Assembly: GCA_963823655.1 (NCBI GenBank)
Contig: CAWGMK010000010.1
Span: forward strand, 288,001 to 352,000
Length of the DNA: 64,000 nt
Reading direction: 5' to 3'
Origin: an uncultured Bacillota bacterium
GTDB taxonomy: Bacteria > Bacillota > DTU025 > MWDF01
Under the pieces are notes generated by a model that saw only the letters and a list, made by a program, of their open reading frames with translations, did not search any database and had not been told where the DNA came from. The translations under genes and the position numbers were made by a program. Position 1 is the stretch's first letter. Each line of letters starts with the position of its first letter. This document shows, one piece after another, positions 35,412 to 51,217 of this stretch.

Positions 35412-35429
35412 CTGTATTAGCTTGACTCT

Positions 35430-35459
35430 AGCCAGCGCCCCAAAGGCGCTGGCTTTTTT
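35430..35459 (+). terminator. Rho-independent terminator
   Basis: AGCCAGCGCC-ccaaa-GGCGCTGGCT followed by a T-run. Confidence 0.8.
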
Positions 35460-35729: not shown

Positions 35730-36758
35730 ATGAAAAGAGTAATGTTGGTTGTACTGGCGATCATGCTCGTCTCAGCCGTAGCAGTTACGGCAGCCGACGC
35801 TCCGATAGCCCTTCTCGGCCTCGGACACGTCATCAGCATCAAGAGCTCCAAGGACGCCACGGAGACGGCAACTGCGGTTGGCCAGGTTGATACGGTAATG
35901 GCCGCAGTAGCTTTCGACATCAATGGCAAGATAGTAAAAGTGAGCATCGACAACGCCCAGACGAAGGTCAACTTCGACAAGGCAATGAAGGTTTCTTCCG
36001 ACGTAACAGTCGCCCCCCAGACCAAAGTAGAGATCAAAGAGGGTTACGGCATGGGCAAGGTATCCACGATAAAGCTCGAGTGGTATCAGCAGATGGCCAA
36101 CTTCGAGAAGTGGATGGTCGGCAAGAACATCAACGAGATCAAGGCCCTCAAGGTCAAGACGCGTGATGCTTCCCACACCAACGTTCCCGACATCCCGGAG
36201 CTCACCTCCCTCGTCACGATAACTGTACAGGATTATATTGCAGCCGTAGAGGATGCATGGCTCAACGCAGTCGCAGTAAAAGCGGGCGGAGTCAAGCTCG
36301 GCCTGGGCCAGAACGTATCAATTAAGAGCTCCAAGAGCGCAACCGATACAGTAGCCCCCGTCGCCCAGGTTGACTGCGTAATGACAGCGACCCTGTTCGA
36401 CGCAGCAGGCAAAGTAGTCGAGACCGTTATCGACAACGGCCAGACCAAGGTCAACTTCGACAAGGCCGGCAAAGTAACCTCGGACAAGACCGCCGTCTAC
36501 AAGACCAAGAAGGAAGTCAAGGAAGGCTACGGCATGGCAAAGGTCTCCACCCTGAAGCTCGAGTGGTATCAGCAGATGGAGAACTTCGAAGCTTGGATGG
36601 CGGGCAAGACCGTCGCTGAGATCCAGGCCCTCAAGGTCAAGACCCGCGACGCCTCCCACACCAACGTTCCGGACGTCCCGGAGCTGACTTCTCTCGTCAC
36701 CATCACAGTACAGGATTACATCGCGGCCGTTGCCGAAGCGTTCGTAAACGCCAAGTAA
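35730..36758 (+). CDS. Secreted tandem-duplicated PplA-like putative flavinylated protein
   Basis: Signal peptide; two ~160-aa repeats each with GKIV..IDNxQ, TKxExKEGYGM, EWYQQM..FE.WM.GK, ELTSLVTITVQDY; directly upstream of apbE. Confidence 0.8.
   Translation: MKRVMLVVLAIMLVSAVAVTAADAPIALLGLGHVISIKSSKDATETATAVGQVDTVMAAVAFDINGKIVKVSIDNAQTKVNFDKAMKVSSDVTVAPQTKVEIKEGYGMGKVSTIKLEWYQQMANFEKWMVGKNINEIKALKVKTRDASHTNVPDIPELTSLVTITVQDYIAAVEDAWLNAVAVKAGGVKLGLGQNVSIKSSKSATDTVAPVAQVDCVMTATLFDAAGKVVETVIDNGQTKVNFDKAGKVTSDKTAVYKTKKEVKEGYGMAKVSTLKLEWYQQMENFEAWMAGKTVAEIQALKVKTRDASHTNVPDVPELTSLVTITVQDYIAAVAEAFVNAK
35812..36750 (+). repeat. Intragenic tandem duplication (two units, about 35812-36270 and 36295-36750)
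   Basis: Long shared strings, e.g. AAGCTCGAGTGGTATCAGCAGATGG and GCCCTCAAGGTCAAGAC...TCCCACACCAACGTTCC, occur in both halves. Confidence 0.9.
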
Positions 36759-36859
36759 CCAAGCCCGGACAATAAGGCAGTACAGGGCCTCCTGAAAAGG
36801 GGGCCCTTTGCATGAGCTGTTGCTAAGAAGGCTTCCAACGCTTAATATTGCTAAAGGTG

Positions 36860-37969
36860 ATGATGATGTCGAAAAAGAAGAACTCGATAATAGCGCTGAT
36901 CGCGGCAATCGCACTTATTGGTGCAGGTATTGCGGGCTATTACCTGACGCGCACAAGGTATGAGAAGTACACGGAGAGCATGCTCGATGTGTTCGATACG
37001 GTTATCACGCTTGTGGCATATACGAAAGACGAGGCGGAGTTCATAAAGTACTTCGATTACGCTTACGACCGTCTGCACGAGCTACACAAGCTATATGACT
37101 TCTATAATTCCTACGAAGGCATAAACAACATAGTCACAATTAATGAGAATGCAGGCATATCCCCCGTAGCCGTAGACAAGCAGATAATCGATATGATCCT
37201 GTTCGCAAAGGACTACTACAGCCGCACCGGCGGGAAGACGAACATCGCCATGGGCTCGGTCCTTAGCATCTGGCACCGATACCGCGATGACGGCATCAAT
37301 GACCCCGACAACGCCAAATTGCCAGACATGCAGGAGCTTGTCGCGGCCTCCTTACATACCGACATAAACAATGTAATCGTTGATGAGTCCAACGGCACCG
37401 TCTATCTCAGCGATCCGCTGATGAGCCTGGACGTGGGGGCAGTAGCCAAGGGTTACGCAACCGAGCTTGTCGCAGACGAGCTGGTTGCCATGGGAATGAG
37501 CTCCGGCATGCTCAACTCGGGCGGAAACGTCAAGTCGGTTGGCAAGCCCATGGACGGCATCAGACAGAGGTGGGGAGTAGGCGTCCAAGACCCTGACGCA
37601 TTCATCTTCTCTGATGACGAGGACCTTCTGGACGTAATATTCGTAAATGACGCCGCAGTTGCCAGCAGCGGGGACTACCAGCGCTACTACGAAGTGGACG
37701 GCAAGGTGCTGCACCATCTAATCGACCCTGCCACATTGATGCCCGCCCAGTATTTCCGGGCAGTCACTGTGCTAACCGACGACGCAGGACTGGCCGACTT
37801 CATGTCGACTGCGCTTTTCATGCTTCCTCTAGAAGAGAGCAGGGCGCTAGCGGAAAGCTTCGATAATGTAGAGGCGTTCTGGGTTTTGCCGGACGGTAAG
37901 ATGGACGCAACAAACGGAATGCTAAAGCTTCTCAGAAGCCAGGGGGCGTCTGGCGCAGACAAGCAATAA
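36860..37969 (+). CDS. apbE: FAD:protein FMN transferase (ApbE/FmnB), membrane anchored
   Basis: N-terminal TM helix, FDT, LDVGAVAKGY, SGGN, SSGDYQRY, HHLIDP, ADFMST. Confidence 0.93.
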   Translation: MMMSKKKNSIIALIAAIALIGAGIAGYYLTRTRYEKYTESMLDVFDTVITLVAYTKDEAEFIKYFDYAYDRLHELHKLYDFYNSYEGINNIVTINENAGISPVAVDKQIIDMILFAKDYYSRTGGKTNIAMGSVLSIWHRYRDDGINDPDNAKLPDMQELVAASLHTDINNVIVDESNGTVYLSDPLMSLDVGAVAKGYATELVADELVAMGMSSGMLNSGGNVKSVGKPMDGIRQRWGVGVQDPDAFIFSDDEDLLDVIFVNDAAVASSGDYQRYYEVDGKVLHHLIDPATLMPAQYFRAVTVLTDDAGLADFMSTALFMLPLEESRALAESFDNVEAFWVLPDGKMDATNGMLKLLRSQGASGADKQ

Positions 37970-37992
37970 TGCAAAGGGATTAGAAACGATCG

Positions 37993-38030
37993 GGTCCGGC
38001 GGCATAACAACCGCCGGACCTTTCTTTTTC
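37993..38030 (+). terminator. Rho-independent terminator
   Basis: GGTCCGGCGG-cataacaa-CCGCCGGACC followed by TTTCTTTTT. Confidence 0.8.
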
Positions 38031-38126: not shown

Positions 38127-38289
38127 TTTTAATGTCATTAAAAACATAATGGCAGACTGATTATCGCTATGCGACTTTGCATAGCCTTATACTGGAAATC
38201 ATATGCGCCGCTTAGTGCGATTATGGATAAATGTCTATCTGTGATATTTGCTATTGTAAGTTGAATGAGATTCAAATATTATGTCATTA
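38127..38289. promoter_or_regulatory. Candidate operator sites upstream of the XRE-cupin regulator
   Basis: Palindrome TTTTAATGTCATTAAAA (38127-38143) and related TTATGTCATTA (38279-38289). Confidence 0.45.
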
Positions 38290-38330
38290 GAGTTATATCC
38301 GCCTCTGTTCTTTCGACGAAGGAGGATGCC

Positions 38331-38940
38331 ATGCTCGACAAGTACGGTTACATAGGCGAGCGCATCCGCAAGGAGCGCACGAAATACGACTTGAGCCTCT
38401 CTGAGCTAGCAAAAGAGATCGGAGTCTCCGTCTCCCTGCTGAGCCTTGTGGAGAACGGCAAGGCGACGCCCTCCATGACTGTGCTCGACAAGATCTGCTC
38501 ATTTTTCTCAATCCATATGGCATCGCTCTTCGAGGAGGAGACCGGTAACCCGAAAGTGGTGCTGCTCAAAAAGGACAAGCAATTCGAAGTGAAAATAGAC
38601 GAAGCCAGGGCAAGGAGATTCCTCCTGCCTAGAACAGGCGTGCCCATTGAGCCCGTCCTTGTGACCATAGATCCCGGTGCGCCCTATATCGACTTTTCCG
38701 TCCATAAGGGAGTCGAATATGGCTATGTCCTGGAGGGCGCAATAACGGTGGAAGTGGAAGGCGGCGAATCCGTTACGTGCGGCGAAGGGAGATTCCATAT
38801 TCTACAAGGCATCTCAGCCCCACAGGCTGCTGAACCTGTCCACCGAGAAGGCGGTCGGCCTTTGGATGGGAGTGCCCGATGTCAACGACACCGCCGGGCA
38901 TACGGCTTTTTCCGAGGAAGGCAAGAAGGCCAGGCGGTAA
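38331..38940 (+). CDS. XRE-family HTH + cupin transcriptional regulator; frameshift near 38788
   Basis: AAGGAGG RBS; IGERIRKER..LSLSELA..IGVS.SLLSLVENGKATPS; HKGVEYGYVLEG; shifted frame gives GDSIFYKASQPHRLLN. Confidence 0.9.
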
Positions 38941-38959
38941 TATTTTCGGAGGTGTGGCA

Positions 38960-39958
38960 ATGAAGAAGATAATCAACAAGCCCGAAATGGCAGTACCCGA
39001 GATGCTGCAGGGAATGATGAAAGCGCACCCGGGGATAGTCGATGTGCTCCCCGGAACCCAGGCAGTAGTAAGGTGCGACGCGCCCGTTAAGGGCAAAGTG
39101 GCGCTGCTCACAGGCGGCGGAAGCGGACATGAGCCTGCCCACGGAGGCTTCGTCGGCAAGGGATTGCTTGATGCGGCGCTCGCCGGCGCGGTGTTCTGCT
39201 CACCTCCTCTAGATGACGGCATCGCCGCGCTTGAGCGCATCAACGGCGGCGAAGGCGCGCTCTTCATAATCAAGAATTATACCGGCGACATACTTCTCTT
39301 CGACATGCTCGAGGAGGAGGCATCCGACCGCGGCATAAAAGTCAAGAAAGTGCTGGTAAAAGACGACGTGGCTGTGGACAAGCGGGAGGGAACGACGGGA
39401 AGGCGCGGCGTCGCCGGTACCGTGTTCGTGCATAAGATAGCCGGAGCTAAGGCGGCATCTGGCGCTAAGCTCGACGATGTGTACCGCACAGCCGTAAAAG
39501 TCACCGAGAACATGAGGACCATGGGCATGGCTACAAGCCCCTGCCTGGTGCCCGGACGCGACAAGACCAACTTCGAGCTGGGTGAGGGCGAGATGGAAAT
39601 CGGAATCGGCATACACGGCGAGCCCGGCGTAAGGCGCGAGAAGCTGGCAACGGCTGCTTCCATTACATCGGAGCTGCTCGATCGCATAGTGGCTGACCTT
39701 CCATACAAGTCCGGGGACGAAGTCGCGGTCATGGTCAACGGTATGGGCGCAACGCCTCTCATGGAGCTGTACATAATCTTCAACGAGGCAGAGAAATACC
39801 TGGCAGCCAGGGGAATTAAGATTGTGCGCAGCTATGTGGGCGAGTACATGACATCGCTTGAGATGGGCGGCTTCTCCATAACGCTGCTTAAGCTTGATTC
39901 TGAGCTGCTGCCGCTGCTCGACGCCCCCTGCAAAGCCGCAGGTTTGGTGCAGGCATAG
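38960..39958 (+). CDS. dhaK: Dihydroxyacetone kinase subunit K, copy 1 (divergent)
   Basis: GGGSGHEPAH, KNYTGD, GRRGVAG, GIHGEPG, TSLEMGG; FCSPPLDD instead of the FTSPTPDQ seen in copy 2. Confidence 0.9.
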   Translation: MKKIINKPEMAVPEMLQGMMKAHPGIVDVLPGTQAVVRCDAPVKGKVALLTGGGSGHEPAHGGFVGKGLLDAALAGAVFCSPPLDDGIAALERINGGEGALFIIKNYTGDILLFDMLEEEASDRGIKVKKVLVKDDVAVDKREGTTGRRGVAGTVFVHKIAGAKAASGAKLDDVYRTAVKVTENMRTMGMATSPCLVPGRDKTNFELGEGEMEIGIGIHGEPGVRREKLATAASITSELLDRIVADLPYKSGDEVAVMVNGMGATPLMELYIIFNEAEKYLAARGIKIVRSYVGEYMTSLEMGGFSITLLKLDSELLPLLDAPCKAAGLVQA

Positions 39959-39985
39959 ATATCGAAATCTTAGGAGGTCCGGGGC

Positions 39986-40613
39986 ATGTCGATCGAAAGA
40001 GCTGATGTTCTAAAGGCGTTCGCGGCTATGATAGACGCCGTAGATAAAAACAAATCCCTGCTCAACGAGCTGGATTCCACAATAGGCGACGCCGAGCACG
40101 GGATGAACCTGAAAAGGGGCTTCGGCATAATCGCAGATAAGCTGGAAGGGCTTTAGGAGCTTGAGCCCGCGATGATCATAAAGAAGGCGGGGACAGCGCT
40201 GGCAGGCGCCGGATGCGGATCAGGCCCCATATTCTACGGCCTTAGGCATTAGGGCCGCGGGCGATGCCCTCATCAAGAACGGCGGGGCCGGGCCCATGGA
40301 AGTCTCCGAGGCACTAACTGCCGCGCTCGACGTCATAAAGGAGAAGGGTGGGGCGAGCGTCGGCCAGAAGACGATGGTTGACGCAATAGAACCGGCAGCC
40401 CTTGCTTTCAGGAAAGCCGCAGATGCGGGGCTCGACATGAGATCGTGCTTCGATGCCGCAGTTGATGCCGCCAAGGTTGGCATGGAAGCGACGGCGAAGA
40501 TGGTCGGCATGAAGGGCAGAGGCTTCCATGCAGGCGAGCGCGGCCTGGACCATCAGGATCCGGGCGCCACATCGGCTTACATGCTTCTTAAGAGCATAAG
40601 GGACATAATCTAA
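39986..40613 (+). CDS. dhaL: Dihydroxyacetone kinase subunit L, copy 1 (divergent); in-frame TAG at 40154 and frameshift near 40241
   Basis: AGGAGG RBS, LNELDSTIGDAEHGMNL.RGF, GSGPIFYG, GQKTMVDA, KGRG...GER...HQDPGATS. Confidence 0.82.
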
Positions 40614-40678
40614 CACAGGTATTTCCATGGGGGACCCATGTGGAATATAGGCAAATCGAAAAAGTAGGAGGCAATAAT

Positions 40679-41797
40679 ATGAAGAGAACAATTCTAACCC
40701 TTGTTGTAATCGCCTTAGTAGCAAGCCTCGCGGCGATAGGCAATGCGGCCACAGTCATAAGAATCGGACTTTCTGCGCCGATAACCGGCAACTATGCCGA
40801 GTACGGCCAGAACTTCGAAGTCTCCGTAAGGATGGCAGTGGATGAGATCAACGCCAAGGGCGGCATCCGCGGCATGAAAGTCGAAGTAGTAGTCATGGAC
40901 TCAAAGAGCGACCCGAAAGAGGCCGCCCTCATAGCGCAGAAATTCGTCGACGATCCTACCATAGTAGCCGAAATCGGCGACTTCAGCAGCACAGCATGCC
41001 TGGCAGCAGCCCCGATCTATGAGCGCGCAGGCATGGTACAGCTATCACCCACAGCATCCAGCCCGCTGTTCGCGCCGTCAGGCGAGTACATGTTCGGCAT
41101 AGTAGGCACTCAGACCGACGAGGGCCCGTTCAACGCGAAGAACATCGCGCAGGACTATCTCGGTCTTAAGACGGTAGCCACCCTCTACATAAACAATGAC
41201 TGGGGCAAAGTGACCAACTCCACATTCGTAGAAGCAGCGAAGAAGATCAACCTCAACGTAGTAACCGAGCAGTTCTTCATGGACTCAGAGAAGGATTTCA
41301 CAGCAGTGCTCACCAAGATCCGCCAGCTGAACCCTGACGGAATATTCTTGGCAGCCATGTACAATGAGGCCTCAGCCATAGCCCGCCAGATCCAGAAGAT
41401 GGGCTGGAAGGTAAAGCTGTCGGCTCCCAGCTCGGTATTCTCAAGCCAGCTCATAGCGCTCGGCGGCGACGCCGTCGAAGGCCTGGTAACCAACACGTTC
41501 TTCGTACTTACCGATCCCAACCCCGTCGTCCAGAAGTACATCAAGGACTTCGAAGCAAGGGCCAAGAGATACCCCAACCTCCACGCCGCCTGCGCATATG
41601 ACGCAGCATACCTGTTGGCCGCAGCAATCGAGAAGGGTGGCCTCGATCGCAAGGCAATCAGGGATGTCCTGGCAGTGACCAAGGGCTTCAAAGGCGTCAC
41701 CGGAGAGATAACCTTCACAGCAGTTGGTGACGTCGTCCGTTCGTACAAGATACTTGCCGTCGAAAAGGGCGAGTGGGTAATCAAGAAGGACAACTAA
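40679..41797 (+). CDS. Liv/HAAT-family ABC transporter substrate-binding protein
   Basis: Signal peptide without lipobox, IGLSAPITG, INAKGGI.G, NNDWG, YDA, FKGVTGEITF. Confidence 0.92.
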   Translation: MKRTILTLVVIALVASLAAIGNAATVIRIGLSAPITGNYAEYGQNFEVSVRMAVDEINAKGGIRGMKVEVVVMDSKSDPKEAALIAQKFVDDPTIVAEIGDFSSTACLAAAPIYERAGMVQLSPTASSPLFAPSGEYMFGIVGTQTDEGPFNAKNIAQDYLGLKTVATLYINNDWGKVTNSTFVEAAKKINLNVVTEQFFMDSEKDFTAVLTKIRQLNPDGIFLAAMYNEASAIARQIQKMGWKVKLSAPSSVFSSQLIALGGDAVEGLVTNTFFVLTDPNPVVQKYIKDFEARAKRYPNLHAACAYDAAYLLAAAIEKGGLDRKAIRDVLAVTKGFKGVTGEITFTAVGDVVRSYKILAVEKGEWVIKKDN

Positions 41798-41812
41798 CAT
41801 CGATCTCGCCCA

Positions 41813-41850
41813 AATCCTGCGGGCAGCAGCGATCCTGCGCCCGCAGGATT
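41813..41850 (+). other. Stem-loop after the SBP gene, probable mRNA stabiliser
   Basis: AATCCTGCGGGC...GCCCGCAGGATT with no U-tail. Confidence 0.55.
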
Positions 41851-41876
41851 CCTAATTGCAAGAAGGCGGTGAGCCA

Positions 41877-42749
41877 ATGTTCTTCCTGCAGCAACTTGTA
41901 AACGGCCTTGCCCAGGGCTCGATCTATTCCCTAATGGCAATAGGCCTCGCGATGATAATCGGTGTAGTCGGGCTGGTCAGCTTCGTAAACGGCGAAGTCA
42001 TCATGGTGGGGGCGGTTGCGTCCTACCTTGCGATCACCTACATAACCCCCAACCCGGTACTTGCTTTGCTTATGGGCATGCTGGCCTCGGCGGTCATGGG
42101 AGTGGCAGTCGAGTACATCTGCTACAGGCCTTTCAGAAGGTCGAAGACCAATAACGCGCTCATTGCGACCATCGGGCTTTCGATATTCGCAAAGAGCCTC
42201 ATGCAGGTAATATTCGGCACAGAGCAGAAGTTCATGCCGGACCTGCTGGGAACGAATGTGATAATTATCGGGGATCTGAGGATAAGCTACGTCCAGGTGA
42301 TGATAATAGCGATTGTCGTCGGCCTGAGCGTGCTTCTCCAGCTCATCCTCTACAGGACCAGGACGGGGGTAGCCCTGAGGGCCGTGTCGATGGACAAGAC
42401 GGCCGCGGCGCTTCTTGGCGTTAACGTGGACCGGACGGTCCTCATAGGTAACGCCATAGGCTGTGCGCTAGGAGGGGTATCCGGAGTCTTGATCGGCATA
42501 TACTACAATTCCGTGTACGCGCTACTGGGCGCAAGCGTGGCCATGAAGGCGTTCGCAGCCGTCGTATTCGGAGGGCTCACCAGCATACCGGGGGCCGCTC
42601 TTGGCGGGCTTGTGCTGGGAGTAGTAGAGAATATGGCCGTTACGATATTCTCATCTGGCTATAAGGATATCGTAGCGTTCATAGTGATCATCATAGTGCT
42701 AGTCATCAGGCCTTCGGGCATCCTGGGACGCAAAGGGGTGAGCATCTGA
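41877..42749 (+). CDS. livH: Liv-type ABC permease (LivH-like)
   Basis: QQLVNGL..GSIY.L.A.GL, G.ALRAVS.D..AA.LLGVN, KAFAAVVFGG. Confidence 0.9.
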   Translation: MFFLQQLVNGLAQGSIYSLMAIGLAMIIGVVGLVSFVNGEVIMVGAVASYLAITYITPNPVLALLMGMLASAVMGVAVEYICYRPFRRSKTNNALIATIGLSIFAKSLMQVIFGTEQKFMPDLLGTNVIIIGDLRISYVQVMIIAIVVGLSVLLQLILYRTRTGVALRAVSMDKTAAALLGVNVDRTVLIGNAIGCALGGVSGVLIGIYYNSVYALLGASVAMKAFAAVVFGGLTSIPGAALGGLVLGVVENMAVTIFSSGYKDIVAFIVIIIVLVIRPSGILGRKGVSI

Positions 42750-42750
42750 C

Positions 42751-43731
42751 ATGAAGAGGACGAAGCTCATCTACATCGGCCTTCTGCTTGCGGCCTTGAT
42801 TCTTATCGGGGCCTTCCCGAAGTTCGCCGGGTCCAATTACATACTTAGAGTCGCAATACTGTCGATGATAAATGTGGCGCTTGTCGGCAGCCTGAACCTG
42901 GTAAACGGCTATATCGGCCAGTTCAACCTGAGCCATGTGGGCTTCTACTGCGTCGGCGCCTACACCGCAGCCATACTCTCTACCAGGTACAACTACAGCT
43001 TCTGGCTTCTGCTTCCCCTATCGGGGCTTATGGCGGCGGCAGTCAGTATGATATTGGGCGTGCCCACTTTAAGGCTCAAGGGCATATTCTTCACGATAAC
43101 GACGCTCGGCTTCTCCGAGATAATCAGGATGACGGTGCTCAACTGGGAGTCGCTCACCCGCGGGACCATGGGAATACCCGGAATACCGTTCCCGGTGCTC
43201 TTCGGCATGAAACTCAAAAGCAACGCCCAGTTCTACTGGATAATATTCGGGATAGTGATAGTGCTTTATATCAGCAATTATCTGCTCATGAACTCGAGGA
43301 TCGGCAGGGCGTGGATCGCCATCAGGGAGGACGAAGGTGCTGCCCGCTCCATGGGGGTCGAAACCTACAAGTACAAGCTGATGAACCTCGCGATTAGCGC
43401 CTTCTGGGCAGGCGTGGTCGGCTGCTTCTACTCCTTCTTCAGCGCCTACGTCAGCGCCGACAGCTTCAAGCTTGACGAGAGCTTCTCTATGGTCGCTATG
43501 CTCCTAGTCGGCGGCCAGGGCACGATGCTTGGCCCCGCGATAGGGGCTATAGTGCTTACCGTGCTGCCCGAGGTCTTCAGGAGCCTGGTTGAATACAGGC
43601 TCGTCATATTCGGAGCTGCGATAGTCCTGATGATACTGCTAAGGCCCCAGGGCATAGTCGGGGGGCTAAGGCTTGCAAACTTCCAGCTTCCTGTCACAAA
43701 AGTCGGCAGGGTAAGGAAGGGGGCGGCGTGA
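42751..43731 (+). CDS. livM: Liv-type ABC permease (LivM-like)
   Basis: LNLVNGYIGQ, GRAWIAIREDE.AA.SMG, GG.GT..G, RPQG. Confidence 0.9.
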   Translation: MKRTKLIYIGLLLAALILIGAFPKFAGSNYILRVAILSMINVALVGSLNLVNGYIGQFNLSHVGFYCVGAYTAAILSTRYNYSFWLLLPLSGLMAAAVSMILGVPTLRLKGIFFTITTLGFSEIIRMTVLNWESLTRGTMGIPGIPFPVLFGMKLKSNAQFYWIIFGIVIVLYISNYLLMNSRIGRAWIAIREDEGAARSMGVETYKYKLMNLAISAFWAGVVGCFYSFFSAYVSADSFKLDESFSMVAMLLVGGQGTMLGPAIGAIVLTVLPEVFRSLVEYRLVIFGAAIVLMILLRPQGIVGGLRLANFQLPVTKVGRVRKGAA

Positions 43732-44543
43732 TGGAGCATCAGGGAAAGGTAATACTTGAGGCAAAGGGCCTGTGCCGCTTCTTCGGCGGGCTAAAAGCCG
43801 TTAACAATGTGGATGTCAAAGTGGAAGAGGGCATGATCCACGGGATAATCGGGCCCAACGGCGCGGGCAAGACCACTTTCTTCAACGTCCTCACCGGCAC
43901 TTACCCCGCATCCGCCGGGGAAGTCCTGTATCTGGGCGATAAAATCACAAACAAAGCCCCGGAGCATATAACCCGGCTTGGCATAGCCAGGACGTTCCAG
44001 AACATCAAGCTCTTCAAGAACATGACCGTCCTGGAGAATGTGAAGATAGGCTTCCACGTCCATACGGGAACCGGGCTTGCAGACGCGCTGCTTCGCACCC
44101 CCAAATGCAGAAGGGATGAGAAGTTCGCAACCGAGAAGGGCCTCGAGATCCTGAAAAGGGTAGGGCTTGACGCCCACGCGGACGACATTGCCACGAGCCT
44201 CCCCTACGGCGACCAGCGCAGGCTCGAGATAGCAAGGGCCCTTGCGACGGCGCCGAAGCTTCTCCTCTTGGACGAGCCGGCTGCGGGTATGAACCCCATG
44301 GAGACGGCACGCCTTATGGATTTCATCAGGCAGCTAAAGGGCGAGGGCTTAACTATAGTAGTCATCGAGCACGACATGAAGCTCATCATGAATATCTGCG
44401 ACAGGATAACCGTAATCAGCTACGGCGAGAAGATCGCCGAGGGCACGGCCGCCGAAATCCAGTCGAATCCCGCTGTAATAGAGGCGTATCTGGGCAAACG
44501 CGGCAATCTCAGGGCGAGGAAGGGGGCCGTCAAGGATGCTTAA
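43728..44543 (+). CDS. livG: Liv-type ABC ATPase (LivG-like)
   Basis: FGGLKAV, GPNGAGKTT, RTFQN, LPYG, LDEPAAG, IEHDM. Confidence 0.92.
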   Translation: MMEHQGKVILEAKGLCRFFGGLKAVNNVDVKVEEGMIHGIIGPNGAGKTTFFNVLTGTYPASAGEVLYLGDKITNKAPEHITRLGIARTFQNIKLFKNMTVLENVKIGFHVHTGTGLADALLRTPKCRRDEKFATEKGLEILKRVGLDAHADDIATSLPYGDQRRLEIARALATAPKLLLLDEPAAGMNPMETARLMDFIRQLKGEGLTIVVIEHDMKLIMNICDRITVISYGEKIAEGTAAEIQSNPAVIEAYLGKRGNLRARKGAVKDA

Positions 44544-45246
44544 AGTAGAGGCCCTCAAGGTAAGATACGGGGCGATCGAAGCGGTCAAAGGCGTTGACAT
44601 ACAAGTTAACGACGGCGAGATAGTGACGCTCATCGGATCAAACGGCGCCGGCAAAAGCAGCACCCTGATGGCTATTTCGAACCTCGTAAGAAAGACCGGC
44701 AAAGTAAGCTTCGACGATACTGACATAAGCGCGCTGGAGCCGAGCCTGATAGTTAAGAAGGGCATCTGCCACGTGCCTGAAGGACGCCATATATTCCCCT
44801 TCCTGACGGTCGAGGAGAACCTTGTGATGGGGGATTTCGGCAACACCGATGGATCCAAGGACAGGGTCAAGGACAACATGGACCATGTCTTCGAACTCTT
44901 CCCCCGGCTTAAGGAAAGGCGCCGCCAGAACGGCGGAACGCTCTCGGGCGGCGAGCAGCAGATGCTTGCAATCGGCAGAGGGCTTATGATGAACCCGAAG
45001 CTCATGATGCTCGACGAGCCCTCCCTTGGGCTGGCTCCCATGCTCGTCGACCAGATATTCGAGCTGATTTTGAAGATTAGGGACCACGGGAAGACGATAC
45101 TTCTCATTGAGCAGAATGCTAACATGGCTCTCCAGATTGCTGACAGGGCATATGTTATGGAGACCGGCGTGATAAGCATGAGCGGGCCCGCTGAAGAGCT
45201 GGCCGGCGACGAGAGAGTAATCAAGGCATACCTGGGCATCAATTAA
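44536..45246 (+). CDS. livF: Liv-type ABC ATPase (LivF-like)
   Basis: GSNGAGKS, VPEGR, LSGGEQQM, LDEPSLGLAP, EQN. Confidence 0.93.
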   Translation: MLKVEALKVRYGAIEAVKGVDIQVNDGEIVTLIGSNGAGKSSTLMAISNLVRKTGKVSFDDTDISALEPSLIVKKGICHVPEGRHIFPFLTVEENLVMGDFGNTDGSKDRVKDNMDHVFELFPRLKERRRQNGGTLSGGEQQMLAIGRGLMMNPKLMMLDEPSLGLAPMLVDQIFELILKIRDHGKTILLIEQNANMALQIADRAYVMETGVISMSGPAEELAGDERVIKAYLGIN

Positions 45247-45263
45247 CGAAAGGCGGTAAATTA

Positions 45264-45758
45264 ATGAGCATCAACAACGTAGCCAAGACCAAGGCGGACG
45301 AGAAGACACTTGATCTTAGAAACGCTTTCGAACACAGGGCGACATGGTTCTATTACCTTCTTGACGAGGCGGAGAAGGCGGGAGCAGACTGGGAGAAGAT
45401 CGGGCGCAACGCAATTTTCCGCTGCGGCTGCTTCCACGGCGACAACAAGTTTACGCCGACATCCGATCTAAAGAAGTTCGCAGGCGAGTTCGCCAACGAG
45501 AACGTGAAGAAGGTATTCGAGATGGACATCAAGGAGATGTCCGACGACAGGTTCTACGTAGAGTTCAACTTCTGCCCGCTAGTGGCGGGCTGGCTCAAGC
45601 AGACCAATGACGAGAAGAAGATCGAGACCCTCTGCGACATCGCCATGGACGGCGACCGCGGCATCATCAACGAGTTCCCGGGCTTCGAGTTCAAGCTGGG
45701 CGACACGATAGCCAAAGGCGGCAAGGTTTGCTGCGTAGAGGTAATAAAGAACAAGTAG
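45264..45758 (+). CDS. L-2-amino-thiazoline-4-carboxylate (ATC) hydrolase family protein
   Basis: EHRATW, AIFRCG, FNFCPLVAGW, LCDIAMDGD, TIAKGGKVC match the Cys pattern of this family as I recall it. Confidence 0.75.
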   Translation: MSINNVAKTKADEKTLDLRNAFEHRATWFYYLLDEAEKAGADWEKIGRNAIFRCGCFHGDNKFTPTSDLKKFAGEFANENVKKVFEMDIKEMSDDRFYVEFNFCPLVAGWLKQTNDEKKIETLCDIAMDGDRGIINEFPGFEFKLGDTIAKGGKVCCVEVIKNK

Positions 45759-45764
45759 GAGTGC

Positions 45765-47054
45765 TTGATGATAACAGTAAGGGAGTATCTTAAGAGGGAA
45801 ATGATGCCCTCTTTAGGCTGCACCGAGCCCGTCGCCGTGGCGCTTGCCGCGGCGCGGGCCTATAAGGCGCTTGAAGGGCGGCCGATCGACCGCATAGAGG
45901 TCGACATCAGTGACAGCATCTACAAAAACGGGATGGGAGTCGGAGTGCCGGGAGCAAACGGCAGGACCGGAAACGGCCTTGCAGCAGTGTTGGGGGCAAT
46001 TGCCGGCGACTCGTCGCTGGATATGCAAGTACTAAGGGATGTAAACGACGACGACGTCGAAAGGGCCCTGCAGATTCTTGCCGAGGGCAGGATGCAGCTC
46101 AACTGCCTTGAGGACGTGCACGGAGTTTACATACTCGTGAAGATAAAAGCAGCAGGCCACACAGCCGAGTGCAGGATCGAAGGGGAGCACAACAATATCG
46201 TATCGGTGAAGCTGGACGGAGTACAGATGCAGGAGAGGAAACAGCCCTTGCCCGGTAAGGCCGCTGAGGCTGACCCATTCCTGGAAGTGGAGTTCGAACA
46301 GCTTCTAGAGCTTGCAGACTGCCTTGAGCCCGAGGACATAGACGCTATCATGGATGGCGTGGAGATGAACCGCAAGATCGCTGCATACGGCCTTTCCGGA
46401 GGCCCGATGTCGGGGTTGGGCGTTGGTTCGGTCTTCAAGGATTTCTTCGAGCACACCCACCTCAACGAGGACCTTCTGTTTAGAATCCGGGCTGCCTGCA
46501 GCGCGGGCTCAGATGCCAGGATGGCAGGTTGCCCTTTGCCGGTCATGACGGTAGCAGGGAGCGGAAACCAGGGGATTACCTCCATGCTTTCGGTTGCCAT
46601 GCTGGCGGAATACTACGGCAAGAGCCGTGAAGAGATAGCGAAAGCCGTGATGGTCAGCATGCTGACGACAAGCTATGTAAGAAGCGTCATAGGCAGGGTG
46701 ACACCCATGTGCGGTTGCGTTGTAGGCGCAGGTTCGGGAGCCGCAGCCGGAATGACATATTTACTCAACGGCTCGATTGACCAGATAAAGCTATCGATGC
46801 AGACGATGATGTCCAATTTGGCCGGCATAGTTTGCGACGGGGCGAAGGGCACCTGCGCGCTTCGGGTAGGGACCGCCGTTACCGAGGCCTACCTTTCAGC
46901 TCTCATGGCCTGGCACTACAAAGGCGCGAGCAACGTGGAGGGCATCGCCGGAGTGACAATGGAACAGACAGCCCATAATGTTTCCATGCTCAACAAAGAG
47001 GGCATGAAAGAGATGGACAGGCTGATAATAGACATTATGGAGGAAGGCAAGTAG
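45765..47054 (+). CDS. L-cysteine desulfidase family (CyuA/YhaM, serine dehydratase alpha-like, Fe-S)
   Basis: LGCTEPVAVA, KNGMGVGVPG, SDARMAG..LPVM..GSGNQG, MCGC, GIVCDGAKGTCA. Confidence 0.88.
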   Translation: MMITVREYLKREMMPSLGCTEPVAVALAAARAYKALEGRPIDRIEVDISDSIYKNGMGVGVPGANGRTGNGLAAVLGAIAGDSSLDMQVLRDVNDDDVERALQILAEGRMQLNCLEDVHGVYILVKIKAAGHTAECRIEGEHNNIVSVKLDGVQMQERKQPLPGKAAEADPFLEVEFEQLLELADCLEPEDIDAIMDGVEMNRKIAAYGLSGGPMSGLGVGSVFKDFFEHTHLNEDLLFRIRAACSAGSDARMAGCPLPVMTVAGSGNQGITSMLSVAMLAEYYGKSREEIAKAVMVSMLTTSYVRSVIGRVTPMCGCVVGAGSGAAAGMTYLLNGSIDQIKLSMQTMMSNLAGIVCDGAKGTCALRVGTAVTEAYLSALMAWHYKGASNVEGIAGVTMEQTAHNVSMLNKEGMKEMDRLIIDIMEEGK

Positions 47055-47081
47055 ATTGCCGCCCTCACCGGAGGACCGGAC

Positions 47082-48077
47082 ATGAAGAAGATAATCGACA
47101 GCCCGGAAAGAATAGTGGATACAATGCTCAACGGCATCGCCTTCTCTCACTCAGGGAAGGTAGCAAGGCTTGAGGGCTTCAACGTAATAGTCAGGAAGAA
47201 TCATAACGACAACAAAGTATCCCTTATAAGCGGCGGAGGATCCGGGCATGAGCCCGCGCACGCGGGCTTCGTAGGCCGCGGAATGCTGGATGCCGCAGTG
47301 GCAGGCGAGGTATTCACCTCTCCCACGCCGGACCAGGTGTTGGCTGCTTTAAAGGCAGTGGCCAGCTCAAAAGGCTCGCTACTGATCATCAAGAACTACT
47401 CGGGAGACGTAATGAACTTCGAGATGGCCGCAGAGATTGCAGAGATGGAAGGGCTCAAAGTGGCCAAAGTCATTGTAAATGACGATGTGGCCGTGATGAA
47501 CAGCACTTATACGACAGGCAGGCGCGGCATAGCGGGAACAGTGTTCGTCCATAAGGTGGCGGGGGCCAAAGCGGAGCTCGGAGGAAGCCTGGAGGAAGTA
47601 GCCGCGGTAGCCTGCAAAGTAATTGCAAACACCAGGAGCAAGGGCTGTGCGCTTGCTCCGTGCATAGTGCCCGCGGTGGGAAGGCCTACATTCACCCTTG
47701 CTGAAGACGAGATGGAAATAGGCCTTGGCATCCACGGGGAGCCGGGCGTAAAGCGTGTCTCCATGATGAGCGCAGAACAGATAGCCCAGGATCTTGCAGG
47801 CTCCTGCGCCGACGACCTAAAGCTTACAGACGGCGAATCGGTGGCGGTCCTGATAAACGGGCTCGGATCGACGCCCCTTATGGAGCTCTATATTCTTGCC
47901 GCCAGGGTTGGCGATTACCTCAAAGCAATTGGAGTTAGCGCCCCAAGGGTTTACGTCAAGGAGTTCATGACATCGCTTGAGATGGCAGGCGCCTCCGTAA
48001 GCCTGATGAGGCTGGATGATGAGATATTATGCCTTCTGGACAAGCCCTGCGATACGCCCGCCTGGACGCAGTTCTAG
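47082..48077 (+). CDS. dhaK: Dihydroxyacetone kinase subunit K, copy 2 (canonical)
   Basis: GGGSGHEPAHAG, FTSPTPDQ, KNYSGD, STYTTGRRGIAG, GIHGEPG, TSLEMAG. Confidence 0.93.
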   Translation: MKKIIDSPERIVDTMLNGIAFSHSGKVARLEGFNVIVRKNHNDNKVSLISGGGSGHEPAHAGFVGRGMLDAAVAGEVFTSPTPDQVLAALKAVASSKGSLLIIKNYSGDVMNFEMAAEIAEMEGLKVAKVIVNDDVAVMNSTYTTGRRGIAGTVFVHKVAGAKAELGGSLEEVAAVACKVIANTRSKGCALAPCIVPAVGRPTFTLAEDEMEIGLGIHGEPGVKRVSMMSAEQIAQDLAGSCADDLKLTDGESVAVLINGLGSTPLMELYILAARVGDYLKAIGVSAPRVYVKEFMTSLEMAGASVSLMRLDDEILCLLDKPCDTPAWTQF

Positions 48078-48090
48078 GCAGGTGGATAGG

Positions 48091-48732
48091 ATGCAGATTA
48101 CTTCCAAAGACCTAATAAAGATGCTTGAGGCGATGCGCCAAACCATCGCCGGGCACAAAGATTACCTTACGGAGCTAGACGCTGCGATCGGAGACGCGGA
48201 CCACGGGATAAACATGGACAGGGGGTTCGCAGCCGTCGTGGCCAAGCTAGTGACCCTCGAGGGCGCATGCTGCGGCACTGTGCTCAAGACGGCCGGGATG
48301 ACTTTGCTTTCCACTGTAGGCGGGGCGTCCGGGCCATTGTACGGCACGGCATTCATGTATGCGGGCAACGCTGTCATGGGAAAGTACGAGCTCGGAGCCG
48401 AGGATGCGGCAAAGGCGGTCGACGCTGCAGTCCAGGGCGTCATGAAAAGAGGCTCTGCCGTGGCGGGCGATAAGACTATGGTGGACACGCTGCTTCCGGT
48501 CTCGCAGTATATGGGCAGCGAGGAGTATCTAAAGGCAGATAGCTTCGATGCGATGCAGAAGGTGCTTATGATCGCTGAAGACGGCATGAACTCGACGGGA
48601 GGGCTTACTGCAAAGCGCGGCAGGGCGAGCTTTCTAGGAGAGCGCAGCGCAGGGCACCTGGATCCGGGCGCCGTTTCCAGCTACCTTCTTATAGGCGCCG
48701 CAGTGCGCCTTCTGGGCGGTGATCGCTTTTGA
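48091..48732 (+). CDS. dhaL: Dihydroxyacetone kinase subunit L, copy 2 (canonical)
   Basis: LTELDAAIGDADHGINM.RGF, GGASGPLYG, GDKTMVD, GRASFLGERS.GHLDPGA. Confidence 0.93.
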   Translation: MQITSKDLIKMLEAMRQTIAGHKDYLTELDAAIGDADHGINMDRGFAAVVAKLVTLEGACCGTVLKTAGMTLLSTVGGASGPLYGTAFMYAGNAVMGKYELGAEDAAKAVDAAVQGVMKRGSAVAGDKTMVDTLLPVSQYMGSEEYLKADSFDAMQKVLMIAEDGMNSTGGLTAKRGRASFLGERSAGHLDPGAVSSYLLIGAAVRLLGGDRF

Positions 48733-49121
48733 TCGGCATACTGATAGTGTCCCACAGCAGGAAAGTCGCCGAAGGCGCAAGGGAAATGGCCCTTGCGATG
48801 ACCGGAGGGGAAGTTGAGATAATCGCCGCCGGCGGAACGGCAGACGGTGGGCTTGGCACGGATTACGAGGCGATTTTCAATGGCATGAGCAAGCTTGCCG
48901 CATGTGGCGGGGGAGCAGTCCTCATGGACCTCGGAAGCGCTGTAATGAGCGTGCAGGCGGCGCTTGAGCAGTTGGGGGACGACCGAGACAAGATCGTTCT
49001 ACTGGATGCCCCATTGGTTGAAGGGGCCGTCGTAGTGGCCGTACAGGCATCGCTTGGCAGCGGCTTAGCGGAGCTTAAAGAAGTAGCCCAAGGGGCTTGG
49101 GGAATGCGCAAGCTAATTTAA
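48729..49121 (+). CDS. dhaM: DHA kinase phosphotransferase subunit (EIIA-Man-like)
   Basis: GILIVSHS, AGGT.DG.LGT, DLGSA, DAPLVEGA. Confidence 0.92.
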   Translation: MIGILIVSHSRKVAEGAREMALAMTGGEVEIIAAGGTADGGLGTDYEAIFNGMSKLAACGGGAVLMDLGSAVMSVQAALEQLGDDRDKIVLLDAPLVEGAVVVAVQASLGSGLAELKEVAQGAWGMRKLI

Positions 49122-49133
49122 GGAGGGCCCGTT

Positions 49134-49397
49134 TTGCTGGAGAAAACCGTAGTAGTAGGCGGCAAGGAGGGCCTTCACGCAAGGCCTGCGGCTGCTTTTG
49201 TCAAGGCGGCATCGAAGTTCAAATGCAAGGTCTCCTTGAACCATAAGGGCAGAAGCATAAACGCCAAGAGCACTATAGACATGATGATGTCTGCAGCATC
49301 CGAGGGGGATCTGATCATCATCCGAACTGACGGCGAGGACGAAGAAGCCGCCATGGGCAGCCTGTCCATTCTTATCGAAGGAAAGGCCGGTCAATAG
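49134..49397 (+). CDS. ptsH: HPr-family phosphocarrier
   Basis: GLHARPAA, NAKS, G.DEE.A. Confidence 0.9.
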   Translation: MLEKTVVVGGKEGLHARPAAAFVKAASKFKCKVSLNHKGRSINAKSTIDMMMSAASEGDLIIIRTDGEDEEAAMGSLSILIEGKAGQ

Positions 49398-49399
49398 CC

Positions 49400-51109
49400 A
49401 TGAAGCTTTCGGGCATCCCGTCATCTCCGGGCATAGCTGGGGGGATAATTCGCAGGATGGAAGCGGCCGGCGCGAGGGGGCTGGCAGCGGACTTTGCGAG
49501 CTCGCAGCCTTTGAGCTGGGATGAAGCTGTAGACGCAGCCAAGGGAGTGCTTGAACAGGCGCGAAAGAAAGCGCTTGATTCTGTAGGCGCCGAGGCTGCG
49601 GCAATCTTCGAAGCCCAGATGATGATAGCGGAGGATCCGAGCCTGAAAGATGCCGCAATGGAGCTTTCCGGCGGCAAGCCGGGGGCGAAGGCTGCGATCG
49701 ATGCCGCGGAATCCCTGGCGAAGATGTTCGACGCGATTGAAGATGAGTACATTAGGGCGAGGGGGGCCGACATACGCCATGTCGGCGCGCTAATAGCCAA
49801 GGCCTTTTCGGGAGAGGGCGAAGACAAGCAGGAGGCCAAAGACGGCGCTATATCCTCTTCTAGCGGCTCCAAGGGCATGGTAATTGCAGCATACGATCTG
49901 TCGCCTTCAGAGACAGTCTTCCTGGATGAGAAAAGCGTATCCGGCATCGCTCTTGAGGGCGGGACCGTTAATTCCCATGTATCGATTCTGGCGCAGGCTA
50001 TGGGCATACCGTGCGTAGTCGGCATAAAAGGTTTAATGCAAGCAGCGGTCCAAGGAGATGCCTGCTTTCTTGACGCGGTTGAAGGCTTTTTCCTTACCGG
50101 ACCTGACATCCCGGCAGGAAGCCAGAGCAGCACCCGTCCCGCAGGAGATGTGGCGCAATTTACTAAACATCTCGTTAGCAAGGATGGGTACAACATAGGC
50201 CTTGCCCTTAACATCGGGAACATTGAGGAGCTCAGGAAACTGGCGAGAATTGACCTGTTAAACACCAATATCGGGCTTATGAGGACCGAATTCATCTTCA
50301 TGGGCGCAAAGCAGCTTCCTGGCTACAAGGCGCAAAGCATCATTTACAAGCAGATCATGGAGGCTGCACATTTCGGAATGGTCAGATTCAGGACCTTGGA
50401 CATTGGCGGGGATAAAAAGCCTTCGTTTGTGGAGTTCGCCCATGAGGATAACCCTTACCTCGGTCTCAGGTCCATAAGGCATTCGCTTAAGAATGAAGCC
50501 ATGTTCAAAGAGCAGTTGAAAGCGCTTGTAGAGGCAAGCGAGGGGCATGCCATTGAAGTGATGTTCCCGATGGTGAGCACCATTGAGGAGCTGAGGCGCG
50601 CAAAGGGCCTTCTTGCGGATGCGATAGCCGAAAACGGCAAGGCTAATAGATTTTCGGTCAGCTCGGGCATCATGCTGGAAGTCCCCTCGGCCTGCATTAT
50701 GGCCGACGCCTTCGCAAAAGAGTGCGACTTCCTCAGCATCGGCACGAACGACCTTGTGCAGTACACCATGGCCACTGACAGAGGCAATCCTGAAGTTTCA
50801 GAGCTTTACCAGCAGTTCAACCCTGCGATTTTCAGATTGATCAACTCCTGCGTACTCGCATGCGAAGTGGCGGGGAAGGAGCTTTCTGTCTGCGGGGAGC
50901 TTGCCGGAAGCCCTGAAGGCGCCGTCATACTTGCAGGCCTGGGCGTAAAGAAGCTCAGCATGTCGCCAAGGAACACCATGCGAGTGGCCAAGGCCCTTTC
51001 GCGATTTAGCGTGCATGAGATGCGTATGCTGGCGATGGAAGTGCTTAACGCCTCTTCGCAGCAGGAAGTTCTGGACATGACGGAAGAGATCAGGGCTGGA
51101 GTGAAATAG
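49400..51109 (+). CDS. ptsI: PTS enzyme I
   Basis: SPGIA.G, SHVSILA, IGLMRTEF, DIGGDK, EDNPYLGLR, GTNDL, CGE. Confidence 0.92.
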   Translation: MKLSGIPSSPGIAGGIIRRMEAAGARGLAADFASSQPLSWDEAVDAAKGVLEQARKKALDSVGAEAAAIFEAQMMIAEDPSLKDAAMELSGGKPGAKAAIDAAESLAKMFDAIEDEYIRARGADIRHVGALIAKAFSGEGEDKQEAKDGAISSSSGSKGMVIAAYDLSPSETVFLDEKSVSGIALEGGTVNSHVSILAQAMGIPCVVGIKGLMQAAVQGDACFLDAVEGFFLTGPDIPAGSQSSTRPAGDVAQFTKHLVSKDGYNIGLALNIGNIEELRKLARIDLLNTNIGLMRTEFIFMGAKQLPGYKAQSIIYKQIMEAAHFGMVRFRTLDIGGDKKPSFVEFAHEDNPYLGLRSIRHSLKNEAMFKEQLKALVEASEGHAIEVMFPMVSTIEELRRAKGLLADAIAENGKANRFSVSSGIMLEVPSACIMADAFAKECDFLSIGTNDLVQYTMATDRGNPEVSELYQQFNPAIFRLINSCVLACEVAGKELSVCGELAGSPEGAVILAGLGVKKLSMSPRNTMRVAKALSRFSVHEMRMLAMEVLNASSQQEVLDMTEEIRAGVK

Positions 51110-51182: not shown

Positions 51183-51217
51183 AAAGGAGCTTCCCGCAAG
51201 GGGGGCTCCTTTCTTTC
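51183..51217 (+). terminator. Terminator closing the dha/pts locus
   Basis: AAAGGAGCTTCC-cgcaa-GGGGGGCTCCTTT followed by CTTT. Confidence 0.7.

Follow-up and report, generated by a model that had tools for sequence, protein, structure and literature searches.

A 64,000-nt stretch of DNA (the window) from an uncultured Bacillota bacterium (GTDB lineage Bacteria; Bacillota; DTU025; MWDF01; NCBI GenBank assembly GCA_963823655.1, contig CAWGMK010000010.1, positions 288,001 to 352,000 of the forward strand) carries a run of 15 co-oriented genes on the plus strand at positions 38331 to 51109. The run encodes an XRE-cupin regulator, a first DhaK/DhaL pair (DhaK1 and DhaL1), a Liv-type ABC importer with its substrate-binding protein (SBP), an ATC_hydrolase-family protein (ATCh; PF14196), a CyuA-like cysteine desulfidase-family protein, and a second dihydroxyacetone (DHA) kinase set (DhaK2, DhaL2, and DhaM) with HPr and enzyme I (EI) of the phosphotransferase system (PTS) (Table 1). 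The coordinates of the open reading frames (ORFs) show gaps of at most about 80 nt and several overlaps, and only 7 to 28 nt separate the ATCh, CyuA-like, and DhaK2 genes. An original prediction, made from the sequence without database searches, had described 14 co-oriented, tightly spaced genes of these families; the spacing and the orientation hold, Pfam, TIGR, and NCBIfam profile searches agree with the families (LivF being assigned by position and orthology), and the list itself holds 15 genes when counted. The cluster is real, conserved, and undescribed. The reading that is tentatively preferred, with somewhat less than even confidence, is that the 15 genes make up a single conserved operon for the catabolism or salvage of a small amino-acid-like compound of cysteine and a three-carbon hydroxy-carbonyl unit.

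Table 1. Features of the 15-gene cluster and its borders (positions in the window)
Feature	Position	Strand	Evidence
Terminator-like hairpin, left border	37992-38021	+	11 pairs, 9 GC, T-rich tail; ends the ApbE gene upstream
Promoter-like site before the regulator gene	38254-38282	+	TTGTAA, 17-nt spacer, TATTAT; only 9 of 12 consensus matches
XRE-HTH + cupin regulator (PuuR-like), frameshifted	38331-38963	+	HTH_3 47.7 bits; Cupin_2 30 bits
DhaK1, intact	38960-39958	+	Dak1 421 bits; TIGR02363 427.5 bits (cut-off 406.25)
DhaL1 pseudogene	39986-40613	+	TAG at 40154-40156 (AAG in relatives); 1-nt insertion near 40240-40244
Liv/HAAT-type SBP, signal peptide	40679-41797	+	Peripla_BP_6 206 bits
LivH-type permease	41877-42749	+	BPD_transp_2 138.6 bits
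LivM-type permease	42751-43731	+	BPD_transp_2 163.3 bits
LivG-type ATPase	43728-44543	+	ABC_tran 107 bits; BCA_ABC_TP_C 49.6 bits
LivF-type ATPase	44536-45246	+	ORF position; 89% identical orthologues in relatives (tblastn)
ATC_hydrolase-family protein (ATCh), 164 aa	45264-45758	+	PF14196 55.4 bits (cut-off 28.1)
CyuA-like [4Fe-4S] L-cysteine desulfidase family protein, 429 aa	45765-47054	+	SDH_alpha PF03313 175 bits
DhaK2	47082-48077	+	TIGR02363 461.5 bits (cut-off 406.25)
DhaL2	48091-48732	+	TIGR02365 221.9 bits (cut-off 138.3)
DhaM, EIIA-Man domain only	48729-49121	+	TIGR02364 113.2 bits (cut-off 98.25)
HPr	49134-49397	+	PTS-HPr 92.6 bits; single HPr gene found in the genome
PTS enzyme I (EI)	49400-51109	+	TIGR01417 411.9 bits (cut-off 341.7)
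Weak terminator-like site, right border	51190-51205	+	5 pairs, 3 GC

Judged from its residues, the SDH_alpha protein of the cluster is a CyuA-family member and a predicted desulfidase, and its gene is the only SDH_alpha gene in the source genome. The protein is about 30% identical to MmCyuA of Methanococcus maripaludis (PDB 9fsl; phmmer E value of 2.4e-34, full-length alignment of residues 3 to 426 on 9 to 394), and no NCBIfam model matched it. Cys23 and Glu25 are kept (GCTEP in the window aligned with GCTEV in MmCyuA), two residues essential to MmCyuA that serine dehydratases do not conserve according to the available text of PMC12647591. Counting the 2-residue offset of the 9fsl chain, the four cysteines in the cluster region (MCGC, CDG, and CAL) are likewise all kept, as are Arg223 and Asn239, and Lys339 is replaced by Arg. 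The arrangement resembles Escherichia coli cyuPA and archaeal CyuA (9fsl) in that an importer is encoded with a CyuA-family enzyme, from which pyruvate, NH3, and H2S would be expected. It differs in having a five-component Liv/HAAT-type ABC importer and not a CyuP-type carrier, in the added PF14196 protein and two DHA kinase sets, and in the Lys339 replacement.

The same precedent is the starting point of a rival explanation, rather unlikely as a whole, in which the cluster serves the fermentation of free cysteine. The Liv-type system would import cysteine, cystine, or a simple sulfur amino acid, the CyuA-like enzyme would ferment it, and the PF14196 protein and DhaK/DhaL would be accessory, acting as a sensory module that feeds XRE or sigma-54 regulators or in damage control of cysteine-triose adducts formed spontaneously inside the cell. 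The chemistry is common to this explanation and the salvage of a cysteine compound, and the imported substrate differs. In E. coli, a dedicated importer is paired with CyuA and cysteine is fermented (available text of PMC9040844), and Moorella thermoacetica fed cysteine induces a 10-gene cluster with a cysteine desulfidase (PMC7835215), the make-up of which is given only in the figure and supplements of that article, not in its text, and may bear on this explanation. If it applied, the 15 genes would still be of interest, amounting to an elaborate operon for cysteine fermentation whose control module is based on DhaK/DhaL.

The ATCh protein, encoded directly ahead of the CyuA-like protein, is a candidate unmasking enzyme or ligand-binding partner. 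In 51 sequences, residues R19, R25, W28, E35, C104, C124, D125, D131, R132, and C156 are invariant and H24, C54, and H58 nearly so. The PF14196 family is small, with 698 representatives at an E value of ≤1e-3, nearly all of which are stand-alone proteins of about 165 aa. A profile search revealed no solved relative of ATCh, the best E values (0.56 and 0.89) being noise. In the literature searched, PF14196 or ATC hydrolase led, apart from noise, only to the domain census of Galperin. According to the available text of that census, PF14196 resembles the HNOB and V4R sensor domains, with three conserved cysteines in common, and a characterised member breaks the C-S bond of a cysteine-derived thiazoline ring (citing Tashima 2006). 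The Pseudomonas pathway from L-ATC to L-cysteine (L-ATC hydrolase AtcB and N-carbamoyl-L-cysteine amidohydrolase AtcC) is the nearest point of comparison for this protein: both have a PF14196 protein, and free cysteine, the outcome there, is the outcome proposed here. The window locus differs in having no carbamoylase or amidohydrolase, in having an importer, CyuA, and sugar kinases as partners, and in occurring in anaerobes. Among the locus genes, which were the only genes examined for it, no amidohydrolase or M20 protein was found as an N-carbamoyl-L-cysteine amidohydrolase partner, and M20 and Amidohydro_3 neighbours occur only in two related loci (L113 and L044, respectively).

Consistent with a link between ATCh and the kinases, a 387-aa fusion protein (P0005) joins Dak2 and ATC_hydrolase domains. 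Three 387-aa sequence variants occur on 4 contigs, and together they represent one 90% cluster and one lineage. A wider occurrence of DhaL-ATCh fusions, sought in a metagenome scan that gave 8 loci, was rejected, as the full-length tblastn matches at two of them (L136 and L137) are two adjacent genes in different frames. A 420-aa open frame at ATCh in one genome (G289) was likewise discarded as a fusion, being LivF followed by a separate ATCh gene. The source genome encodes a second ATCh paralogue of 237 aa on the minus strand (G000 C7:209341-210054; L121:7341-8054; PF14196, 64.2 bits), which lies directly downstream of and co-oriented with a gene for a cation-efflux (CDF, ZT_dimer) transporter. 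This neighbour hints at a metal link for the PF14196 family.

All five components of a HAAT importer are present, LivF by its ORF and orthology only. The SBP is placed by profile comparison on the amino-acid branch of its family and is not an equivalog of the Leu/Ile/Val binders, since it falls below the LivJ/K equivalog model (NF011933, 167 bits against a cut-off of 477). Its nearest solved chain is the uncharacterised 3hut (E value of 1.3e-56). In one related locus (L033 of G007, positions 7082 to 7931), the LivM orthologue matches in two pieces (query residues 47 to 80 and 87 to 326), which may reflect a frameshift in that assembly.

DhaK2, DhaL2, DhaM, HPr, and EI are predicted to make up a complete phosphoenolpyruvate (PEP)-dependent kinase. 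Like the known DhaKLM system, the window has DhaK, DhaL, and DhaM proteins that exceed the equivalog cut-offs, followed by the two PTS phosphocarriers. It differs from that system in having a second DhaK/DhaL pair of a separate clade and in lacking a glycerol dehydrogenase and a facilitator in the locus. The latter absence had been pointed out in the original prediction and extends to the 97%-complete genome, in which the best match to the glycerol dehydrogenase model NF006941 scored 26.5 bits against a cut-off of 336 and no MIP channel was found. With neither found, the classical source of DHA is missing. Import of free cysteine leaves the presence of a full PTS kinase in the operon, including the only HPr gene of the genome, unexplained.

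The first three genes form a sub-block of a different kind. DhaK1 belongs to a separate DhaK clade that always stands beside the XRE regulator. In the DhaK tree, three clades track gene context, and the DhaK1 type is the outlier. Together, the XRE-cupin protein and DhaK1/DhaL1 probably make up either a control module that senses carbonyls or a second kinase. DhaK and DhaL serve as co-regulators of DhaR, which the adjacency of DhaK/DhaL to a regulator in the window recalls. Unlike the DhaR of E. coli and the DhaQ-DhaS of Lactococcus, however, the window regulator is of the XRE-cupin type and not of the DhaR or TetR type. Moreover, DhaK1 exceeds the DhaK cut-off and lies far below that of the coactivator DhaQ (277.8 bits against 413.25), which does not favour the sensory role that free-cysteine fermentation could assign to it.

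This module appears partly inactivated in the source assembly. Three-frame reading and a DNA alignment with three relatives place a 1-nt insertion near 38781-38785 of the regulator gene, which puts the last ~50 cupin residues out of frame. The ancestral frame would end at 38940, and intact orthologues have about 200 aa. DhaL1 is broken by an in-frame stop codon and a second 1-nt insertion, its C-terminal piece still scoring 86.6 bits with Dak2, so that the second kinase set is not intact even though DhaK1 is whole. Recoding of TAG was considered for the in-frame codon and rejected, since TAG is a normal stop here, ending 22 of 60 long ORFs and 7 genes of the locus. The regulator and DhaL1 are both intact in three same-genus species and in one other family (DhaL1 in L023 to L025 and L033), and both extra bases are absent from contigs of a ~95%-identical relative from one wastewater study, one of which (3,098 nt) covers positions 38311 to 41000 with 141 differences and 3 gaps. 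The lesions are thus private to the source assembly, whether they stem from genuine decay or from assembly errors. The position of the two broken genes as neighbours within the sub-block may be meaningful, and parts of one module might be expected to be inactivated together, as an accessory module of free-cysteine fermentation could be. In a same-genus species (L023/L039, ~11707 to 11709; G006:C27:10816-11745), the DhaK2 orthologue has an in-frame TAG about 17 codons before its usual end, which may be further decay of the cluster within the genus.

The conservation of the cluster was examined in two samples. In 16 regions taken around SDH_alpha homologues in relatives, all 15 genes occur in the same order in three same-genus species and in one genome of another family of the order. 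One region contains SBP-LivHMGF-SDH_alpha-ATCh without dha genes, and nine contain the SDH_alpha gene without any other locus gene. A profile scan with ATCh, using one genome per species, kept the best 80 of 241 relatives, of which the 77 loci outside the genus were counted. Liv permeases are encoded in 51 of these, DhaK in 36, DhaL in 38, and the SDH_alpha protein in 36; Liv and DhaK occur together in 34 loci and with SDH_alpha in 26, and DhaM and the XRE regulator occur in 8 each. When only the 47 loci with at least 8 kb upstream and at least 3 kb downstream are considered, Liv and DhaK occur together in 24, all three in 23, and none of the three in 10. ATCh stands immediately after LivF in 25 of the 77 loci, both with and without a regulator, which counts against the fermentation of free cysteine.

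At least three gene orders, in several phyla, were recognised. The first, Reg-DhaK1-DhaL1-SBP-LivHMGF-ATCh-(SDH_alpha)-DhaK2-DhaL2-DhaM-HPr-EI, is that of the window and is found in records titled Synergistaceae (without SDH_alpha), Halanaerobiales, Ca. Profundicultor, and several Bacillota metagenome-assembled genomes (MAGs). The second, SDH_alpha-SBP-LivHMGF-DhaK-DhaL-(GAF-PAS-sigma54 regulator)-ATCh, is found in about 25 loci, including those of the isolates Anaerotruncus colihominis DSM 17241, Lachnotalea glycerini, Anaerocolumna aminovalerica, and Marasmitruncus massiliensis. The third is SBP-LivHMGF-DhaK-DhaL-ATCh. The name DhaR was tried for the sigma-54 regulator and dropped, as its score of 152.8 bits lay far below the cut-off of 551 and the PrdR match was slightly better. 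A record titled as a Bacteroides thetaiotaomicron MAG (L079) contains a Clostridia-like SDH_alpha-Liv-DhaK-DhaL-ATCh cluster with identities like those of Lachnospiraceae loci, which may be a mis-binned contig or a transfer.

Linkage of the liv/ATCh/desulfidase block with the dha block in other genomes had been set beforehand as a test, and the two blocks are linked in many of them, in differing orders and interleaved. Since the dha genes stand between liv and ATCh in the second and third orders, a chance juxtaposition of two operons is unlikely. This bears on the explanation that two unrelated modules, a DHA/PTS operon and an operon for amino-acid uptake and deamination, lie side by side with no common substrate. 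Both modules have stand-alone counterparts (dhaKLM and cyuPA), some Liv-ATCh loci lack dha genes, and in two same-genus species the CyuA-like gene occurs without either block. This explanation is nevertheless already disfavoured and regarded as very improbable, given the linkage in at least three gene orders and several phyla, the DhaL-ATCh fusion, the narrow gaps from ATCh through DhaK2, and the missing classical source of DHA in the genome.

In addition to these orders, variant clusters were found in which the roles are kept and the families are swapped. In L042, in the same order as the window organism, a XylB-type FGGY kinase (398 bits; cut-off 380) and a sigma-54 regulator occur with Liv, SDH_alpha, and ATCh, together with an aldehyde:ferredoxin oxidoreductase. 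In L066, L074, and L085, in records titled Spirochaetales, Spirochaetia, and Desulfosarcina, Liv is joined by an FGGY kinase and by URO-D/MtaA-like and shikimate-kinase-like proteins, with RidA, SDH_alpha, and ATCh, of which one or two further copies are present. L095, from the genus of the window organism (G003:C13), encodes an Fe-alcohol-dehydrogenase-like protein, Liv, a double ATCh ORF (314 aa), a methionine-gamma-lyase-like pyridoxal phosphate (PLP) enzyme, an SBP, DhaK, and DhaL, with a ribokinase gene convergent to the cluster. In L058, IscS-like and ThiI genes precede Liv-ATCh, and two Cys/Met PLP genes under a SAM riboswitch are nearby, while L084 and L104 have Liv-ATCh followed by IscS-like and TtcA-like genes. 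L113 combines ATCh and SDH_alpha with an M20 deacylase, and L062 has RidA after EI. The stable picture is that of an amino-acid-type importer, ATCh, and a cysteine-using or beta-eliminating enzyme, often with a kinase or oxidoreductase for a small hydroxy-carbonyl compound, and these functional slots are conserved although the families change. Free-cysteine import leaves the replacement of DhaKL by FGGY kinases or an aldehyde oxidoreductase unexplained, but it does agree with the Liv-ATCh loci beside IscS-, ThiI-, and TtcA-like genes, where only cysteine is needed.

The variation of the kinase slot also raises the unlikely possibility that the logic is the same and the compound is another one, such as S-(2,3-dihydroxypropyl)-cysteine from lipoproteins, C4 to C5 ketose- or aldose-cysteine adducts, or another beta-substituted amino acid, with the kinase slot tuned in each lineage to the sugar part. 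PLP C-S lyases of the methionine-gamma-lyase type accept S-substituted cysteines, the slot is occupied by DhaKL, XylB-type FGGY, or shikimate-kinase-like proteins, SBP identity between the two main architectures is only about 30%, and the Fe-alcohol-dehydrogenase-like gene at the head of L095 could supply an oxidation for glyceryl-cysteine. However, DhaK-family kinases require a carbonyl adjoining a hydroxymethyl group, so that glyceryl-cysteine as such gives no DhaK substrate, and the window locus contains no oxidoreductase; the original prediction had remarked that this route would need an oxidase absent here. Nothing in the data singles out any such compound.

Compounds of cysteine with trioses, the class named in the original prediction, are real and have been reported in print. 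As described in the available text of PMC13121033 (Nat Metab 2026), cysteine reacts non-enzymatically with dihydroxyacetone phosphate (DHAP) and with glyceraldehyde 3-phosphate (G3P) to form the stable thioethers S-(1-deoxy-dihydroxyacetonyl)-cysteine (1DC) and S-(3-deoxy-glyceraldehyl)-cysteine (3GC), and cysteine and carbonyl metabolites form reversible hemithioacetals and thiazolidines. The conjugates were found in tumours and are exported by cells, and that article nowhere uses the word "bacteria". Condensation products of cysteine with glyceraldehyde phosphate (GAP) or DHAP, and their dephosphorylated forms, have been described in activated macrophages and human samples (bioRxiv 10.64898/2026.03.18.712640, in the text available). 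Entamoeba histolytica stores cysteine as thiazolidine-4-carboxylates, and its lysate frees cysteine, suggesting an unidentified enzyme (available text of PMC4222106). The Entamoeba thiazolidines and mammalian 1DC and 3GC are thus candidate substrates of the predicted kind, the reports in their available text concerning eukaryotic cells. In the literature searched, no catabolic genes for cysteine-triose adducts, no bacterial thiazolidine pathway, and no paper naming both "dihydroxyacetone kinase" and "cysteine desulfidase" were found, nor any description of this gene combination, in agreement with the claim that it is undescribed.

For the putative salvage operon, the candidate substrates are 1DC and 3GC, both thioethers, or the thiazolidines formed by cysteine with glyceraldehyde or DHA; that cysteine-triose conjugates specifically are the substrate is possible but doubtful. 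Mechanistically, the Liv-type ABC system would import the compound, and ATCh would open or cleave its C-S linkage to give free cysteine and glyceraldehyde or DHA. In the case of a thiazolidine, this step would be a hydrolysis of the imine. In the case of 3GC, chemical reasoning suggests that elimination-addition at the aldehyde's beta carbon would yield cysteine and glyceraldehyde. The CyuA-like iron-sulfur enzyme would then convert cysteine to pyruvate, NH3, and H2S, with RidA, where present, quenching the enamine, and DhaK2/DhaL2 would phosphorylate the triose, PEP providing the charge via EI, HPr, and DhaM. The DhaL-ATCh fusion would fit a direct transfer of the reactive triose. That anaerobes of several phyla import and dismantle 1DC, 3GC, or the related thiazolidines, conjugates whose natural occurrence was recognised only in 2026, in this way, with the PF14196 protein freeing cysteine and handing the triose to DhaK/DhaL, is a tentative proposal, more doubtful than the existence of a common operon. 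The salvage of fructoselysine (an Amadori product) by frl genes offers an analogy, in which a spontaneous sugar-amino-acid adduct is imported, a kinase acts on the sugar, and both halves are recovered. The two systems differ in that they have no enzyme families in common, with no PfkB kinase and no SIS-domain deglycase here, and in that the linkage proposed here is via sulfur and not nitrogen.

Several observations weigh against a salvage operon of this kind, and some of them favour the import of free cysteine. DhaM is encoded in only 8 of the 77 loci, and most dha-linked clusters are without DhaM, HPr, and EI. With the DhaM model, no match was obtained in the complete genome of A. colihominis or in L. 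glycerini, each of which has three to four Dak1 genes. Without DhaM, the DhaKL proteins of most clusters cannot be a PTS kinase; they may use ATP directly, or they may sense a carbonyl for the adjacent sigma-54 regulator. The missing DhaM of A. colihominis and the position of DhaK-DhaL beside a GAF-PAS-sigma54 regulator in about 22 loci thus agree with an accessory role in cysteine fermentation. The kinship with the V4R and HNOB sensor domains suggests that the PF14196 protein could be binding or regulatory and not an enzyme, as the same explanation would have it. In 2 of the 16 regions, both from the same genus, SDH_alpha is the only locus gene present between ApbE and C69 genes, the same flanks as in the window, which indicates a use for the CyuA-like gene without the rest. 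One of these species (98% complete) has no Dak1 and no ATCh over the cut-off anywhere in its genome, and the other has a variant cluster elsewhere in its genome. Liv-ATCh genes with SBPs that are 62 to 70% identical to that of the cluster occur with no DhaK or CyuA nearby (L058, L063, and L076). Between the two main architectures, SBP identity is only ~30%, so that their substrates may differ. Furthermore, the window copy has two broken genes, those for the regulator and DhaL1. The 80 loci were those closest to this ATCh and many of them are kin, so the counts overstate independence, and matches to the ATCh part in only 9 of 401 genomes of an even phylum sample indicate that the cluster is patchy.

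Taken together, the earlier proposal of a cysteine-triose conjugate is partly supported and represents the best available, although unproven, interpretation. The linkage, the fusion, the kinase swaps, the sulfur-enzyme neighbours, and the missing DHA route argue for it; the CyuA-like gene on its own, the dha-free Liv-ATCh loci, and the rarity of DhaM argue against it. If it is true, the cluster would be the first catabolic route for cysteine-sugar adducts and, in guts, sludge, and sediments, a new H2S source of microbial origin; it would show what the poorly understood PF14196 family does in anaerobes, and it would explain a PTS-dependent DHA kinase in organisms that show no glycerol-to-DHA route. 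The cultured carriers A. colihominis DSM 17241, L. glycerini DSM 28816, and A. aminovalerica DSM 1283 make the proposal directly testable, and the candidate substrates are obtainable from cysteine and triose phosphates by methods published in PMC13121033, as far as its available text describes them.

The borders of the cluster had been described as two terminators. The upstream hairpin is strong and the downstream one is weak (Table 1). In total, the scan returned 14 terminator-like sites against a mean of 17.1 in shuffled sequences, fewer than in the shuffles, and the border hairpins are therefore no more than consistent with that claim. Among the sequencing runs searched for words of the stretch, none contained half of them or more, and RNA runs contained at most 0.11. 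A riboswitch or T-box that would name the ligand was sought and dropped, as no Rfam match over the threshold was found in the window and none adjoins liv/ATCh in 14 related loci, where the Rfam matches are SAM and TPP riboswitches on neighbouring opposite-strand genes, 5S rRNA, and tRNAs. The flanking genes are unrelated to the cluster. Upstream, at positions 34360 to 37969, they encode an FMN_bind protein, a protein of 347 aa that matched no Pfam family over the threshold, and the flavin transferase ApbE, the last two being syntenic within the genus. Downstream, they encode a C69 peptidase and a phosphofructokinase. In the two same-genus loci with the CyuA-like gene only (L026 and L027; G001 and G003), the downstream C69 peptidase gene is tandemly duplicated.

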